DNA from: a virus | Taxonomy: Duplodnaviria; Heunggongvirae; Uroviricota; Caudoviricetes | Length of the DNA: 10,060 nucleotides | Direction: 5' to 3' (one strand) | IMG/VR virus record: IMGVR_UViG_2695420540_000013 | Part shown: positions 922 to 6,821 of the stretch, piece after piece | Layout: every line of letters begins with the position of its first letter | Position numbering within the stretch: the stretch's first letter is position 1 | Position numbers and translations under genes: made by a program | The notes under the pieces: generated by a model | Told to the model about the DNA's origin: nothing | Database searches by the model: none | What the model saw: the letters and a program-made list of their open reading frames with translations, nothing else

Positions 922-1149
922 TGTGCCCCCATCGCGCTGGTTAAGAAAACAAGCTCAGATTTTTTGTAAAGAATCTGTCACGCTAAAAGATGTCGAACAA
1001 AAATTAACCACAATCATCATCTTTTTTGCATCAACCACATTAAAAACAACAGGTTACACACATGATGATGATGACGATAAAACCACAAAAATGCGTTTTT
1101 TTCCGCGCCGACCCGCCCCGTGGACAGGCCCCCCCCACCAGGAGGACCC

Positions 1150-1179
1150 GCAAAAAAGGCGGCTGCTGCCGCCTTGTTC
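1150..1179 (-). terminator. Rho-independent terminator immediately after the protease-capsid gene stop
   Basis: Perfect 8-bp stem AAGGCGGC / GCCGCCTT (1156..1163 and 1168..1175) with a 4-nt loop; on the minus strand it is followed by a T6 run (complement of A1152..A1157). Sits 1 to 25 nt past the stop codon at 1180..1182. Confidence 0.6.
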
Positions 1180-3060
1180 TCATGAAGAAATCGCTCTGAC
1201 CATTCCGCGATAATCCAGAGCAGCAACGCCAGCATCAATGCGGACCTTCCAGGCCACACCGTCAACAATAAAGCCCTCCTGCTGCTCAAGGTAAGGCTCG
1301 TCATTACCGTCAAGATAAGCCACCTCAATTGTGTCCGTTCCCTGTGCTGAAAGCATGTACCATTGCTTATCACTGACTTCATCAAGGCGGGGATCGACAA
1401 TAATATCCAGTTGTTTGTGGTACGGGTTATATGAACCACTGTTTGTATCGGCACCGAAAGGCGTGGTTGAGTTAACCATTTGCAACGCTCTGTCTTCCAG
1501 AGCCGCAGGAACAAGAAGGAATTTTGGCACAATATTCAGCACCTCACCGTTTTCATCCCTCTGTGTGCGCATTGCACGGCGTGCAATGCCAAGCCCTGTA
1601 GTGCTGACTCCGTTATCAATATCATTTCCGTGTTTTTTGCTGAACAGCGGTATACCGTCAGAAAGCTTTGTGTTTCCTGTCAGCACCAGATGAACCAGAT
1701 TACCCACCGTTCTGGCGGCTGCTCGCCCCATTGCCTGTGGGATAACTGTTAACTGATTCAGGTCATCGTTAATAATCGCCTGTCGGGTAATGCTGAAAAT
1801 ATTTCCGTAAGTTGCCAGCGCGATTGGTTCGCCACGGTCACTGGTGGTGATGTATTTATATTCCGCGCCTTCCGGCACTTTGTTTAATGTAGAGAAGCCA
1901 TTCAGGCCAACACGACGTGCCTCATGGAAGTTTGACAATGAACCTTTTTTCGTCCACTGGCGGAACGTTTCGCCGCTGTGTTCCCATCCGGCAAGCACGG
2001 ATTTTTCAGCACCACCAGCAAGGATATAAGTAAAATCGCTGCTGCTGTGGGTGAATGCCGCGTTTACTATCTGCGAGCGTGTGCTGTAGCTGCCTGTGCT
2101 TATGCCGCGATGGGTTAATGATGCCTGTGCCATATCGAAAAGGCTCATCATGGCGTAAGGGTTGCCGCGTTCTGCCTGTTCATGTCCCAGACGCGCATTA
2201 AGCCCCTGACGCATTGCATCGCCGGTTATGTTGCCGTTATCCGTGTACGCGTAGTAAAGATTTGCGGGGGTGGTTTTGTTTGTCGGTGTCGATTCTTTAC
2301 CCATAGTGAGTAAAAGGCGTTCGCGTGCATCCTCAACGCTACAGCCTGAATCAGCAAGACAACTTATAGCCAGGTCGTTATATCTTCCATTGAACGTGCC
2401 AAACAATTCACGTATCCCGTTGAGTCGTTCCTGTTCTCCGCTGCCAGTTTTCTGGCTGATCATGCTTTTAATATTTTCCGGCATATTCGAAAAATCTCCG
2501 ATTCGTTTTGATTCAATTCTGGCCATTGCTGTAATCGCGGGTATAACCTCATCTGCGAAGCCATTAGCCTTACACTCATTGCCATCCATCCAGGTTTCCG
2601 CCTCCATCATGGCGGTGATTTCCTGTTTGCTCCTGCCCGTTCTTCCGGCGTAGGTTTCCGCCATCGTGTCGCCCAGCTTGTCCATCAGGTCAGCAAAGCG
2701 GCGAACGTCGCCCGACACTCCGGCAGTAACACCACGGGGGGCATGTATCATCATCATCGCGTTTTCAGGCATAACGATGTGATCGCCACACATGGCAATA
2801 AACGAGGCCATAGAAGCCGCCATGCCTTCAATGTGTACAATTTTCTTTGCCGGATGATTTTTCAGGGCGTTATAGATAGCCAGCCCTTCAAAGATGTCGC
2901 CACCAGGTGAATGGATGCGAAGATGGATTTCAGGCACATTACCGCACGCGTTGATCTCGTCAGTAAGTGCCGATGCTTTTACACCGTACCCGCCGATCTC
3001 GTCATAAATGCGTACATGTACAACATCAGCCATAGCCTTAATGGAAAACCATGTTTTCAT
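1180..3060 (-). CDS. ClpP/S14-like prohead (head maturation) serine protease fused to an HK97-fold major capsid protein, 626 aa
   Basis: The N-terminal ~190 aa carry ClpP-family signatures: HSPGGDIFEGLAIYNAL (cf. ClpP INSPGG..IY), EGMAASMASF (cf. GQAASMG, catalytic Ser) and MMMIHAPRG (cf. MIHQPLGG, catalytic His). The C-terminal ~430 aa resemble phage major capsid proteins (assigned from context and general look, not from a specific motif). ATG at 3058..3060 with AGGAG 7 nt upstream; an in-frame ATG at 3031..3033 is an alternative start. Confidence 0.85.
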   Translation of the reverse strand: MKTWFSIKAMADVVHVRIYDEIGGYGVKASALTDEINACGNVPEIHLRIHSPGGDIFEGLAIYNALKNHPAKKIVHIEGMAASMASFIAMCGDHIVMPENAMMMIHAPRGVTAGVSGDVRRFADLMDKLGDTMAETYAGRTGRSKQEITAMMEAETWMDGNECKANGFADEVIPAITAMARIESKRIGDFSNMPENIKSMISQKTGSGEQERLNGIRELFGTFNGRYNDLAISCLADSGCSVEDARERLLLTMGKESTPTNKTTPANLYYAYTDNGNITGDAMRQGLNARLGHEQAERGNPYAMMSLFDMAQASLTHRGISTGSYSTRSQIVNAAFTHSSSDFTYILAGGAEKSVLAGWEHSGETFRQWTKKGSLSNFHEARRVGLNGFSTLNKVPEGAEYKYITTSDRGEPIALATYGNIFSITRQAIINDDLNQLTVIPQAMGRAAARTVGNLVHLVLTGNTKLSDGIPLFSKKHGNDIDNGVSTTGLGIARRAMRTQRDENGEVLNIVPKFLLVPAALEDRALQMVNSTTPFGADTNSGSYNPYHKQLDIIVDPRLDEVSDKQWYMLSAQGTDTIEVAYLDGNDEPYLEQQEGFIVDGVAWKVRIDAGVAALDYRGMVRAISS

Positions 3061-3251
3061 AGCCAGGCTCCTAACGTTGCCCTGTACCAGTATTCAACCG
3101 CGCTTCTCGCAATCTGCCCTTTCGTGGGTACTGGCATTCCAGGGTGATGACTTTTAATGAACTGCTGATAGCGTTCGAGCTTCTCCATAGTTCCGGCGTC
3201 TATGTGCACTGTTGCACTTTTATCCGGTTTTCTGCTGTTGTTCTCTGGCAT
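3057..3251 (-). CDS. Small hypothetical protein, 64 aa (75 aa if started at the ATG at 3282..3284), first gene of the capsid operon
   Basis: ATG at 3249..3251 with a GGAGG Shine-Dalgarno 7 nt upstream; the upstream ATG at 3284 has no RBS. Its stop overlaps the capsid start in an ATGA junction (3057..3060). Confidence 0.5.
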   Translation of the reverse strand: MPENNSRKPDKSATVHIDAGTMEKLERYQQFIKSHHPGMPVPTKGQIARSAVEYWYRATLGAWL

Positions 3252-3324: not shown

Positions 3325-3354
3325 AAAAATCAGATTATGTGTTTTCTGATTTTT
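3325..3354. promoter_or_regulatory. Perfect 10-bp inverted repeat AAAAATCAGA-N10-TCTGATTTTT in the capsid-operon promoter region
   Basis: Read directly. Lies 40 to 70 bp upstream of the first start codon of the minus-strand capsid operon, in an AT-rich stretch with weak -35/-10-like hexamers (ATGACA ... TAATCT on the minus strand). Confidence 0.45.
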
Positions 3355-3498: not shown

Positions 3499-3749
3499 NN
3501 NNNNNNNNNNNNNNNNNNNNNNNNNNNNNNNNNNNNNNNNNNNNNNNNNNNNNNNNNNNNNNNNNNNNNNNNNNNNNNNNNNNNNNNNNNNNNNNNNNNN
3601 NNNNNNNNNNNNNNNNNNNNNNNNNNNNNNNNNNNNNNNNNNNNNNNNNNNNNNNCGNNNNNNNNNNNNNNNNNNNNNNNNNNNNNNNNNNNNNNNNNNN
3701 NNNNNNNNNNNNNNNNNNNNNNNNNNNNNNNNNNNNNNNNNNNNNNNNN
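3499..3749. other. N-masked / undetermined sequence block (251 nt, with an isolated CG at 3656..3657)
   Basis: Run of n characters; nothing inside can be interpreted. The six-frame ORFs crossing it (3401..3790, 3422..3880, 3435..4034) are artefacts of translating N. Confidence 0.99.
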
Positions 3750-3755
3750 CGTTGC

Positions 3756-4178
3756 TTAAAACGGTATGTTATCCCCGTACGGATCATCATTCCCCGCCTG
3801 TTGTTTGGCCCTGTTCAGTGCATCAGTGGCCTGCCCCTGTTGGCCTTTTTTACCGCCCGGTCGCGCCGTTCTGGCACTGATTACACTGTCTGCGATAACC
3901 TGCCAGCCCTGCCGCGTTTCTCCGTTCTGGCCTGTCCACTGGCTTACCTGCATGTTACCCGCCACGCTCACCAGCTCGCCTTTCTGGTGCTTTGCCAGTG
4001 CGTCAGCCTGTCTGCCAAACGCCAGGACGGATAACCATATCGTCGCCGTTCCGTCATCTGCCTGGCTGCACGGCAGGGGAACCGCCATACTCGCCATCGT
4101 CATTTGCGTACCCTTGCTGGTGGTCTTTAACTGCGGGTCAGCCACCAGCCGCCCGTAAGCCGCTATCTGTGCTGTCAT
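3756..4178 (-). CDS. ssb: Single-stranded DNA-binding protein (SSB), 140 aa
   Basis: N-terminal OB-fold-like region (AAYGRLVADPQLK ... WLSVLAFG ... GELVSVAGNMQVSQWTGQNGETRQ), a Gly/Gln-rich linker, and an acidic C-terminal tail ending DDPYGDNIPF (cf. E. coli SSB DDDIPF). Start ATG at 4176..4178 overlaps the upstream gene stop (ATGA). Confidence 0.85.
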   Translation of the reverse strand: MTAQIAAYGRLVADPQLKTTSKGTQMTMASMAVPLPCSQADDGTATIWLSVLAFGRQADALAKHQKGELVSVAGNMQVSQWTGQNGETRQGWQVIADSVISARTARPGGKKGQQGQATDALNRAKQQAGNDDPYGDNIPF

Positions 4179-4734: not shown

Positions 4735-6525
4735 CTATGCACATGATGGCATCCAGTCTTCTGAATCCTCTGTCAGGGTCACATTTGAACGCAAACCGTG
4801 CTTCGTTTTCCGTTTCATATACTCCCTGCCATATTCCGCCATTGCCCCCGGCATATCTTTACCGAAGCGCGTCAGTGTTACAGGTTTACCGAATCCGTGT
4901 GCCCTCATATATGCCAGATAGGCGTGATAAAGATACCTGCGCGGACTGAACGGAATAATTTCGGCATTACCCACTAACAGACCATCACACATTACCGACG
5001 ACATGAGATAGCCGCAGAAGTCCACCAGCGAATCGCCCTCGCGTTTTATCACCAGAGCTTCTTCTGATTTCTGCTGCTCATACAGCAGGCGTTTAGCTTC
5101 GTCCTGGTCAGAAAAACGAGTAAGCAGGTGGCGAATCACAACCGCCAGCTCTCCTTCTATTTTTTCTGCCAGCATGGGGTCGCGTTCGTTCTCCGGTACA
5201 ACTTCCGAAAAATTGAATATCACCCGACGACGTGAGATCCCCCCGCTGCGGTCACTGAATGACATGGCGTTATTGTTAACCGCCAGCACTACTGCCGGAA
5301 TACGCGTTGAGTAGGGGGCTTTGTGTTTCGGGTCAATTGCCACCTTGTCACCGCCTGTAATGGCCTTAATCCCTGCCCCATCACCAGCGTAGCGGGTCAT
5401 ATCCGGCATGATAATCAGCGAAAAGCCAACCACTAACGCGCGTTCCCTTGCATCTTCCAGCGCCTTCATGCTTGCCGATACTGTGTTGGCCTTACCCGCC
5501 AGCATGGTGCAAATCTCCGCCATCACGCTTTTACCACTTCCCCCTGGACCTGTTACCTCAATGAATAACTGCCAGTCGTACCGGTTCGCCAGCACCATGA
5601 ATAATACAGCCAGTACGCGATCCGCCTTGCGGTCATTCTCAGCCACCGAACGGCGTAACCACTTCCAGAAATTCGGCGCATGTGTTGCCAGCGTTTCCCC
5701 CTCTGCTGGTGGGCTGAAAGGTAATTCACTGGCAATTAACAACCAGTCGTTTTTGTTATGCTCCCGAAAATTACCTGTTCTGGTATCAAATACCCCGTTA
5801 CTGAATCCAATCAGGTTACGGGCTGTATTCCCCATTACAGGCAAACTTAACTTCATGGTATCGACCGCCGATTTAATGGCGTTCTGCGAATAGCTGATCT
5901 CCGCATCAATGAAAATCTGTGCCATAGCTCGCTGTAATTCTTTATCCTGTACTGGCTCCCATACAACGCCGTTGTAATGGTGAACAGTGTCAGAGTCAGC
6001 ATGAATCGCCAGTTCACCGCCATAATGTGCCAGGAGAACTTCGCCGCGTTGACTTGCTCCCATCTGGTTAAGCGCCAGTGATGAAGCGTTATCGTCTTTT
6101 ACCCGCTCTTTTTTCTTTACAGGCAGTTCAACTACCTTTTTCTTTTCCGCCTGCTCTGCCCGTTCACGTTCCAGATATTCGCGCCAGTTCTCCCGTTTCT
6201 GGCTGTGCATTCCTTCAGGGTAATAATCAGCATCCCTGACACCTGCCACTGCCAGTTTCTGCCCGATGGTATTAACAAGCCCCGGACGCAATAACCCCGC
6301 CTGATAGAGACGCACGCGATAGCGTCCGTCCGGTACGATTTGCAGGTTGTCCAGTTCGGCAAGTTGTTGCTCTCCAAGCCAGACAGGTGGCACGTTATCG
6401 CCAGCCAGTCGCCCGTCCTGTTCCTGCCACTGTTTCGCATGTGCCCACGCATCACTACCCGCAAAAATGATGACTTCCGTCATTTTGTCACGCGGCTGGT
6501 GTTTTAAATTTGGCGCTTTTTTCAT
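4735..6525 (-). CDS. P4 alpha-like replication primase/helicase (N-terminal primase region, Walker-A P-loop NTPase), 596 aa from the preferred start
   Basis: Walker A GPGGSGKS; overall resemblance to the phage/plasmid primase P4-family C-terminal domain. Preferred ATG at 6523..6525 has a GGAGAGA Shine-Dalgarno and forms an ATGA overlap with the upstream gene stop; the ORF track's longer start (6540) and a shorter one (6483) lack an RBS. Confidence 0.88.
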   Translation of the reverse strand: MKKAPNLKHQPRDKMTEVIIFAGSDAWAHAKQWQEQDGRLAGDNVPPVWLGEQQLAELDNLQIVPDGRYRVRLYQAGLLRPGLVNTIGQKLAVAGVRDADYYPEGMHSQKRENWREYLERERAEQAEKKKVVELPVKKKERVKDDNASSLALNQMGASQRGEVLLAHYGGELAIHADSDTVHHYNGVVWEPVQDKELQRAMAQIFIDAEISYSQNAIKSAVDTMKLSLPVMGNTARNLIGFSNGVFDTRTGNFREHNKNDWLLIASELPFSPPAEGETLATHAPNFWKWLRRSVAENDRKADRVLAVLFMVLANRYDWQLFIEVTGPGGSGKSVMAEICTMLAGKANTVSASMKALEDARERALVVGFSLIIMPDMTRYAGDGAGIKAITGGDKVAIDPKHKAPYSTRIPAVVLAVNNNAMSFSDRSGGISRRRVIFNFSEVVPENERDPMLAEKIEGELAVVIRHLLTRFSDQDEAKRLLYEQQKSEEALVIKREGDSLVDFCGYLMSSVMCDGLLVGNAEIIPFSPRRYLYHAYLAYMRAHGFGKPVTLTRFGKDMPGAMAEYGREYMKRKTKHGLRSNVTLTEDSEDWMPSCA

Positions 6526-6821
6526 TTCTGCTCTCTCCACGCGGCAATCATGTTTTTTAGTTCCTGTAGTTTTTTATCAACATCCATACATGACACATGG
6601 TTATTTCTGGAAAGCGGGATTTCCCGACTGAATCTGCTAATAAAGATCTCCACGTTCAGCGAACTAAGAAATGAATAGCCATCACGGATAAAATACACAC
6701 GGTCAAACATCAGTTCTTTTACCGTTACTCTGTTACCGTTCTTATCCAGATAAATAGCGCCGGGGATAATTTGGGGGTGTGCATAACCGCTGGCAGTCAA
6801 GCCAGATAAATACGTTCTCAT
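6522..6821 (-). CDS. Hypothetical protein, 99 aa (second gene of a low-GC two-gene cassette)
   Basis: ATG at 6819..6821 with GGGGA upstream; stop overlaps the primase start. Sampled 60-nt windows here give about 35-43% GC versus about 52% in the primase gene. No family recognised. Confidence 0.55.
   Translation of the reverse strand: MRTYLSGLTASGYAHPQIIPGAIYLDKNGNRVTVKELMFDRVYFIRDGYSFLSSLNVEIFISRFSREIPLSRNNHVSCMDVDKKLQELKNMIAAWREQK

Follow-up and report, generated by a model that had tools for sequence, protein, structure and literature searches.

The closest described counterpart of the protein examined here is the product of the Salmonella phage Gifsy-2 "tripartite capsid gene," a fused protease/coat gene that has been studied structurally and whose particles have been imaged (Effantin et al. 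2010, Virology 402:355, as related in PMC12315714 and PMC8538268). In this type, described by the NCBIfam model NF045540, one open reading frame (ORF) encodes a ClpP-like protease, a central scaffold-like region, and an HK97-fold coat protein in this order, and the gene lies in the phage head module, directly after the portal gene, as the sole coat protein gene. We analyzed a 10,060-nucleotide stretch of DNA (IMG/VR record IMGVR_UViG_2695420540_000013, called the window below) that encodes a 626-amino acid protein of the same type. The window fusion shares the order of the three parts and 47–51% identity over 99% of the length with the Gifsy-2/NF045540 type, but it stands without upstream portal, terminase, head-completion, and tail genes, a difference of context and not of family. 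It further differs by a linker that is 20–40 residues shorter, by Asn377 in place of an aspartate invariant in phages, and by a small satellite-specific gene that precedes it. We favor, with moderate confidence, the reading that the fusion is a functional tripartite capsid gene of the Gifsy-2 type, borne by a phage satellite and serving its assembly and packaging together with a helper phage.

Capsid genes are known from other satellites. Among Gram-negative phage-inducible chromosomal islands (PICIs), whose gene plan the window matches, 21 of 29 reference islands carry one, some "bearing a CLP_protease gene" (PMC6092414, PMC10111431). The window has in common with EcCICFT073 (c1499/c1500), with the PICIs bearing a CLP_protease gene, and with those at the site C:CLP_protease:110 the succession of integrase, alpA, primase/SSB replication zone, and late zone, two cos sites, and a homologue of the helper coat protein (PMC6092414, PMC6739421, PMC10111431). 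The capsid homologue of EcCICFT073 is of the lambda-E type and accompanied by a separate D-like gene, whereas the window encodes a protease fusion. Another comparison is Ccm of SaPIbov5, a satellite-encoded HK97-type coat homologue that is found in pentameric capsomers and alters the capsid shape (PMC8569155). Like the window, SaPIbov5 carries a diverged homologue of the coat protein of a cos-type helper; however, organisms and sequences are unrelated, the abstract of that source describes no protease/scaffold fusion, and the effect on size or shape is demonstrated for Ccm and hypothesized for the window fusion. Ccm is likely a functional analogue, which would imply mixed or alternative shells and interference. 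Capsid-forming PICIs (cf-PICIs, e.g. EcCIEDL933/EcCI2; bioRxiv 10.1101/2022.09.08.507074; PDB code 9gyi) make all capsid and packaging proteins and steal only tails, whereas the contribution of the window is limited to the shell/protease gene and its small partner.

Domain organization of the fusion protein

The fusion gene is an uninterrupted frame of 626 codons from ATG to TGA, with an RBS (ribosome-binding site)-like AGGAG motif of its own 7 nt ahead of the ATG. The initial annotation had delimited exactly this frame without giving a strand; it lies on the minus strand (Table 1). As judged from sequence profiles, the domain matches are far beyond chance. Pfam assigns CLP_protease to residues 44–173 (E 7.9e-33) and Phage_capsid_4 to residues 331–623 (E 1.1e-54), the full-length model NF045540 scores 863.2 bits against a curated cutoff of 475, and PHROG 133 matches with E 1.2e-272. 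An AlphaFold2 model built from 74 diverse homologues (mean predicted local distance difference test score, pLDDT, 87.6) divides the protein into the segments of Table 1. Both the profile searches and the structure prediction, which the initial annotation had proposed as checks, thus agree with its claim of a ClpP-type N terminus fused to a capsid protein, and the C-terminal part does contain a capsid domain. Its assignment of the entire remainder to the capsid protein does not hold, because residues 176–277 comprise a linker, a helical domain, and a disordered stretch.

The N-terminal domain has the fold of ClpP (S14) serine proteases with an intact Ser-His dyad: Ser83 and His106 hardly vary across the family alignment. 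Glu155 occupies the position of the ClpP aspartate and is retained in all five sequences compared. Beside the catalytic histidine (residues 106–109; window 2743–2736), the clade of the window has HAPRG, and the other four aligned sequences have HKPWG.

The linker is modeled with low confidence and lacks the Pro/Ala/Thr-rich segment of phage-type homologues. It is followed by a domain of three helices (207–221, 228–236, and 242–255; pLDDT ∼88–92), which by analogy with Gifsy-2 may act as a scaffold. PHROG 94 and PHROG 53, both annotated as head maturation protease, match residues 9–294 and 37–285, respectively, and therefore the similarity runs past the protease into the scaffold-like region. 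The segment between the helical domain and the N-arm of the capsid domain is disordered in the model (pLDDT <50 at residues 263–275) and is most likely the region of maturation cleavage, as predicted from the model. The C-terminal domain assumes the HK97 fold. Just past the fusion stop codon, a GC-rich, terminator-like hairpin with a T-run can be read from the sequence; a consensus scan of the related locus L006 did not list an equivalent hairpin on the fusion strand.

A widespread family of phage coat proteins

The architecture is already known: it defines a curated, widespread family, and the novelty of the locus does not lie in the protein. We found 5,605 cluster representatives similar to the fusion at E ≤ 1e-30, and the best 150 are nearly all full-length fusions of 610–795 amino acids. 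Seventy-four phage records match with at least 80% query coverage, including CP-1639, VT1-Sakai, several Stx2 phages, mEp460, mEp213, mEp043, cdtI, Gifsy-2, and Pseudomonas LESphi3; at 99% coverage, the identity is 51.1% to CP-1639, 49% to mEp460, and 48.4% to Gifsy-2. The gene order in these phages is TerL, a small W-like gene, portal, and then the fusion, with no separate coat-protein gene. The phage form occurs in ∼2,016–2,070 of 5,426 complete Escherichia coli genomes. Given the curated model, the Gifsy-2 gene, and these genomes, the fusion is not the unusual architecture that the initial annotation took it for.

A frameshift in sequencing or assembly that artificially joined two genes had been raised as a concern, which draws only on the separate protease and capsid genes of HK97 and lambda. 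In the assembly collection, 196 indexed blocks contain exactly this protein, the architecture is unchanged in all 83 homologues compared and recurs in the best 150 cluster representatives and in the 74 phage records, the curated NCBIfam model covers the full length, and the particles formed from such a gene in Gifsy-2 have been imaged (Effantin 2010, as related in PMC8538268 and PMC12315714). Together, these observations rule out an artefact, to which we assign a practically negligible probability.

The window is a satellite island

Whereas the initial annotation assumed a phage setting, no portal, terminase, tail, or lysis genes were found in the window by ORF listing, Pfam, NCBIfam, or PHROG. 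Because integrase, AlpA, primase, and SSB genes are present and portal, terminase, and tail genes are missing, we conclude that the window is a phage satellite of the Gram-negative PICI type and not a phage. It has the hallmarks of this group: a size of 10–20 kb, a terminal integrase gene, alpA, a primase/replication zone, genes mostly in one direction, and helper-type packaging signals without terminase, tail, or lysis genes of its own. The same ∼10-kb island is located between cspD and clpS in other strains, including the related loci L001 and L006. We rejected the readings as a full prophage or as a cf-PICI because the portal, terminase, and tail genes are missing; a complete capsid and packaging set is not encoded, as the stretch from SSB to the end of the island contains only the fusion gene and small ORFs. 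Literature searches returned no direct description of this island family.

A satellite-specific lineage of the fusion

To place the window copy, we surveyed one genome per species. This yielded 80 fusion loci: 65 with a portal gene directly upstream (prophage type), 12 of the satellite type, where integrase, AlpA, or primase genes replace the head genes, and 3 on contigs too short to classify. In a neighbor-joining tree of 83 fusions (15 satellite copies and 68 phage-type copies), all satellite copies fall into two satellite-only clades with bootstrap values of 192/200 and 189/200. Clade 1 comprises Enterobacterales, including the window, and clade 2 comprises Halioglobus, Oceanisphaera, Pseudomonas, Halomonas, Halopseudomonas, and Thiopseudomonas. 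The signal for these clades comes from the capsid domain; a tree of the protease alone does not resolve them (0 and 5 of 100 bootstraps).

The satellite copies also share signatures. The linker (window residues 175 to 210) spans 34–45 residues in 15/15 satellite copies, compared with 52–83 residues in 68/68 phage-type copies. Asn377 is a signature of the satellites, with an aspartate at this position in 68/68 phage-type copies, and a one-residue insertion at residue 326 is common to the satellite copies. The ratio of nonsynonymous to synonymous substitution rates (dN/dS) is 0.13 in the comparison with an island copy of 92% identity and 0.19 for a copy of 62% identity. Since it is low (0.10–0.20) in each of the three domains, the whole protein is maintained by selection within satellites. 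The synonymous rate (dS) against the copy in L001 (O111:H8 island, 10367–12256) is 0.045 in the protease part versus 0.70 in the capsid part, which indicates recombination inside the gene and thus a mosaic.

These data bear on the view that the fusion is a late gene that was taken from a helper and retained as a passive "backup copy" with no role of its own in transfer or interference. The capture of late genes by PICIs is documented, a knockout of the capsid homologue of EcCICFT073 was tolerated (PMC6092414, PMC10111431), and the difference in dS testifies to recombination in the window gene as well. However, a recent capture is contradicted by satellite-only clades that span Escherichia, Yersinia, Rahnella, Kluyvera, Pseudomonas, Halomonas, and others, and by an identity of just 50–55% between satellite fusions and co-resident helper genes. 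Purifying selection in all domains and the conservation of a satellite-specific partner gene and linker length likewise speak against a passive copy, which we consider rather improbable.

cos-like repeats and the type of helper

Two direct repeats of ∼130 nt, each consisting of a terminator hairpin and a cos-like sequence, flank the module formed by a 64-amino acid partner gene and the fusion. The cos-like copies are spaced 2,530 bp apart and are 83% identical over 64 nt. Copy A lies inside the N-masked stretch of the window and was read in the unmasked locus L006 (9356–9480, with the cos-like site at 9380–9480), where the equivalent stretch (∼9312–9562) comprises the 3'-terminal part of the SSB gene, a terminator hairpin, and copy A; a hairpin with T-run also precedes this copy. 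Copy A is 88.6% identical to the segment of CP-1639 between Rz and the DUF1441/TerS-like gene; it has further matches in VT1-Sakai, in Stx2 phages, and at the mEp460 genome end. In lambdoid phages, cos is located between Rz and the TerS-like gene. The cosN-like cores GGGCGGGCGGTT and GGGCGGGTCGGC of the two repeats are similar to those of lambda (GGGCGGCGACCT) and LLS/mEp213 (GGGCGGCGCGCT), which were taken for comparison from PMC12315714. Two cos sites are also known from EcCICFT073 (PMC6092414, PMC6739421). Cutting at both sites of the window would detach the capsid module from the remaining island.

The island occurs together with a 100%-identical CP-1639-type fusion in the same genomes, e.g. 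NZ_CP028607.1 and NZ_CP077585.1. In two relatives, L014 (Rahnella) and L068 (Kluyvera), the fusion gene of the helper prophage itself harbors the satellite, at residues 104–109. The crossover core in both is ATGATGATCCA, which encodes Met-Met-Ile-His including the catalytic histidine; the copy of this core in the window is off by one base (ATGATGATACA). The satellite fusion is 54–55% identical to the helper fusion that it interrupts. This insertion, in codons of the helper's ClpP domain as in other helper-embedded PICIs, matches the published site C:CLP_protease:110 (PMC10111431) and ties the satellite family directly to helpers with a phage-type fusion. As part of the reading that we favor, and with the same moderate confidence, the helpers would be lambdoid phages of the CP-1639/Stx/mEp460/Gifsy-2 head type, whose sole coat protein is a homologous fusion of ∼50% identity.

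The upstream partner gene

The partner gene is coupled to the fusion by the ATGA overlap that the initial annotation had pointed out (fusion ATG 3060–3058, partner TGA 3059–3057). Translation from the ATG at 3251, 8 nt behind a GGAGG, gives a product of 64 amino acids, and translation from the first ATG one of 75; the RefSeq annotation of a related island gives the 64-amino acid form at the same position. A search of a large protein database returned only 6 close relatives, and we found distant homologues by inspecting the ORFs upstream of satellite fusions. All 15 satellite copies have a small ORF directly upstream of the fusion, with an ATGA overlap or at most 11 nt apart. In 13 of them, from both clades and several orders, it encodes a recognizable homologue (59–74 amino acids) with invariant His16, Asp18, Arg49, and Trp55, whereas two Halioglobus loci have an ORF of 92–96 amino acids of uncertain kinship at this position. 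No partner homologue was found in the 65 phage-type loci.

The AlphaFold2 model of the partner (pLDDT 70) shows an extended stretch (residues 1–18) followed by two helices (19–35 and 44–63). The protein has no Pfam or PDB sequence match, and a Pfam search of the single sequence up to E 10 gave nothing useful. The top PDB matches of the family profile are CopG/Arc/MetJ antidotes (E 0.097–0.11), aligned on the second helix, and Pfam RHH_1 matches 2 of 12 family members (best E 0.011); both results are below threshold. Because of these matches and the T-V-H-I-D strand pattern, a ribbon-helix-helix fold is the best reading, and the partner is probably a DNA-binding protein of this type, with the motif T-V-H-I-D ... 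R49 ... W55. Ribbon-helix-helix proteins are commonly encoded by the first, autoregulatory gene of an operon. The partner is most likely a regulator of the operon that it forms with the fusion. We looked in the different satellites for a common operator ahead of the partner gene and found none. In the window, a perfect 10-nt inverted repeat, AAAAATCAGA N10 TCTGATTTTT, lies at 3325–3354, 75–100 nt upstream of the partner; this candidate operator is specific to the window and not conserved in the other satellites examined.

The initial annotation suggested a scaffold, decoration, or size-determination factor instead. In a related proposal, the partner would be a structural protein, comparable to SaPI CpmB or P4 Sid, that determines size from within or works like a scaffold. 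CpmB is small and mostly helical, as is the modeled partner, and the tight association in 15/15 satellite copies, 13 of them with a recognizable homologue, together with the restriction to satellite-borne fusions would suit such a role. In contrast, the strand-helix-helix pattern with its Arg and Trp and the top profile matches point to CopG/Arc/MetJ, and searches of PDB sequences, Pfam, and folds revealed no similarity to scaffold or decoration proteins. With no positive support for the initial suggestion, we regard a structural partner as somewhat unlikely and a ribbon-helix-helix regulator as the better reading.

A candidate internal start at Met193

The codon of Met193 is preceded by a Shine-Dalgarno (SD)-like core (Table 1). 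In the alignment columns of the 83 homologues, an ATG occupies the Met193 column in 71 sequences, and 70 of these have an SD-like core at the same distance. The core is present in 0 of 7 aligned homologues with another codon in this column (5 have a gap there), and at 18 other conserved methionine columns it occurs at a fraction of 0–40%, mostly <5%. The amino acids encoded over the core differ (EE, ED, QE, GD, KD, KE, and ME) while the purine core is kept, and the first glutamate codon is GAG in every listed EE or ED context compared with 39% GAG elsewhere in these genes. The persistence of the purine core despite varied amino acids and the GAG bias argue that selection acts on the nucleotide sequence itself to keep an internal ribosome-binding site.

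The conserved core and ATG suggest a second product, a predicted protease-less scaffold-capsid protein of 434 amino acids. The nested genes C/Nu3 of lambda and I/Z of Mu follow the same logic. An internal ribosome-binding site would account for phages with the fusion not loading one protease per coat subunit; literature searches returned no description of an internal start in this type of fusion gene. The initial annotation's "single polypeptide" is accurate for the reading frame but may be incomplete for its products, to which a nested one may have to be added.

Proposed role in satellite assembly

In the mechanism that we propose, induction of the helper would lead to expression of the two-gene operon of partner and fusion. 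The fusion, and probably also the protease-less product that starts at Met193, would form shells on the portals of the helper, either pure or with helper subunits mixed in, as Ccm does in SaPIbov5. The tethered protease would then cut in the disordered segment and remove the protease and scaffold parts, and the helper terminase would package satellite DNA from the helper-like cos sites of the satellite. The expected result would be a capsid assembly redirected in size or composition to the benefit of the satellite, together with interference with the helper; such an effect of the satellite fusion on the capsid is a hypothesis.

Several points weigh against this mechanism. Foremost among them, the lambda-E-type capsid homologue of EcCICFT073, the only one tested in E. 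coli PICIs, is dispensable for transfer; its deletion did not restore normal phage plaques, and the island is packaged in full-size capsids (PMC6092414, PMC10111431). The two cos sites 2.5 kb apart are not accounted for by the model. With HAPRG instead of HKPWG beside the catalytic histidine, the activity of the protease is an assumption. The ribbon-helix-helix assignment of the partner is based on sub-threshold matches and is not proven, Foldseek matched the monomer model to no PDB entry at E <1, and a scan of the unmasked L006 revealed no sigma-70-like promoter on the coding strand upstream of the operon. Finally, this island is known from sequence alone.

A different use of the same protein is conceivable. 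The fusion might be an interference-only weapon that co-assembles with or cleaves the head proteins of the helper and does not enter satellite particles. PICIs in general interfere with their helpers (PMC6739421), the fusion is homologous to the helper subunit yet diverged from it, as is classic for a dominant-negative protein, and the altered linker and the D377N exchange of an aspartate invariant in phages could disturb lattice contacts. A poison, however, would not require an intact protease, a scaffold, and a full capsid fold under purifying selection, and the satellite would still need to be packaged in some capsid. We therefore judge this possibility unlikely and retain the functional capsid gene as the favored reading.

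Other features of the window

The last gene of the island encodes a 93-amino acid protein; the related E. coli-type islands that we examined (L001–L009) have it in the same place. This protein has no detectable similarity to Rpp or TerS. An Rpp-like identity was considered for the 93- and 64-amino acid proteins and dropped for lack of a PDB sequence match; in this search of the two proteins, and in contrast to the capsid-bearing PICIs, no Rpp homologue was detected in the window. In sister islands whose fusion is 62% identical, a DUF1441 (Nu1/TerS-like) gene separates the fusion from the 93-amino acid gene (e.g. L002, 12171–12656). The window differs from them in lacking this gene, and its gap at 921–1180 holds cos copy B only. 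In other relatives, the place of DUF1441 is taken by a 74–85-amino acid helix-turn-helix protein that resembles the N terminus of TerS, for which an Rpp-like role was raised as a question.

An Icd-like gene is also among the genes of the island. A 272-amino acid ORF (7364–8182, minus strand) overlaps the plus-strand YlcI-like gene and the Icd-like region; called in one assembly and without a family match, it is probably not a gene.

Table 1. Coordinates of the fusion gene, its segments, and other features (window positions unless a locus is named)
Feature	Residues	Position	Strand	Remarks
Whole fusion ORF	1–626	1180..3060	minus	626 aa; ClpP-like prohead protease/scaffold-like domain/HK97-fold major capsid protein fusion (NF045540 family)
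Protease domain	1–175	2536..3060	minus	AlphaFold2 segment and Pfam CLP_protease match
Catalytic Ser83	83	2814-2812	minus	protease domain
Catalytic His106	106	2745-2743	minus	protease domain
Glu155	155	2598-2596	minus	at ClpP Asp position
Linker	176–206	2443..2535	minus	low model confidence
Candidate internal start	193	2482..2499	minus	GGAGA 2499-2495, 10-nt gap, ATG of Met193 2484-2482
Three-helix scaffold-like (delta-like) domain	207–255	2296..2442	minus	AlphaFold2
Disordered segment	256–277	2230..2295	minus	ESTPTNKTTPANLYYAYTDNGN; predicted cleavage region, between helical domain and capsid N-arm
HK97-fold major capsid domain	278–626	1183..2229	minus	AlphaFold2 and Pfam Phage_capsid_4
Asn377	377	1932-1930	minus	satellite signature
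Terminator-like hairpin		1152..1173	minus	GGCGGCAGCAGCCGCC + TTTTTT; 7 nt past fusion stop codon
cos-like copy B		1061..1146	minus	…CTCCTGGTGGGGGGGGCCTGTCCACGGGGCGGGTCGGCGCGGAAAAAAACGCATTTTT…; cosN-like core GGGCGGGTCGGC at 1118-1107
64-aa partner gene	1–64	3057..3251	minus	ATGA overlap with fusion start
N-masked stretch		3499..3749	minus	N runs 3499-3655 and 3658-3749, 249 bases
SSB		3756-4178	minus	
81-aa protein gene			minus	listed between primase and SSB
P4/D5-type primase		4735-6540	minus	
DUF4222 protein gene			minus	
YlcI-like gene		7542-7847	plus	
AlpA		8193-8489	minus	
Integrase		8822-10060	minus	
Last island gene, 93 aa		640-921	minus	PHROG 1561
Helper fusion gene in L014		2642-2968/14124-15782		interrupted by satellite
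Helper fusion gene in L068		897-1277/12179-13825		interrupted by satellite

Implications for phage satellites

As a protein, the fusion is ordinary; what the window adds is the satellite context and the satellite-specific signatures. Among the capsid genes of Gram-negative PICIs, the sole one tested, that of EcCICFT073, is dispensable. It is possible, though we put this forward only tentatively, that widespread satellites supply the shell alone: a self-processing gene and a small partner would build their own capsids on portals stolen from the helper, with its terminase and tails, the short tether and D377N would be adaptations of size or specificity, and the nested Met193 product would set the protease dose. 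The members of such a class would be found in Escherichia (the window) and, among its relatives, in Yersinia, Rahnella, Kluyvera, Pseudomonas, Halomonas, and Oceanisphaera. If this is true, shell-only satellites would stand between cf-PICIs, which take just the tails from a helper, and classical PICIs, which take everything. The lineage of this one-gene capsid module has three testable signatures, i.e. the short linker, Asn377, and the dedicated partner gene, and its helper type is identifiable and includes Shiga toxin-converting phages. Because the signatures are clear and the helper type can be identified, the island offers a convenient system for asking whether a satellite redirects assembly with a self-processing coat protein of its own.

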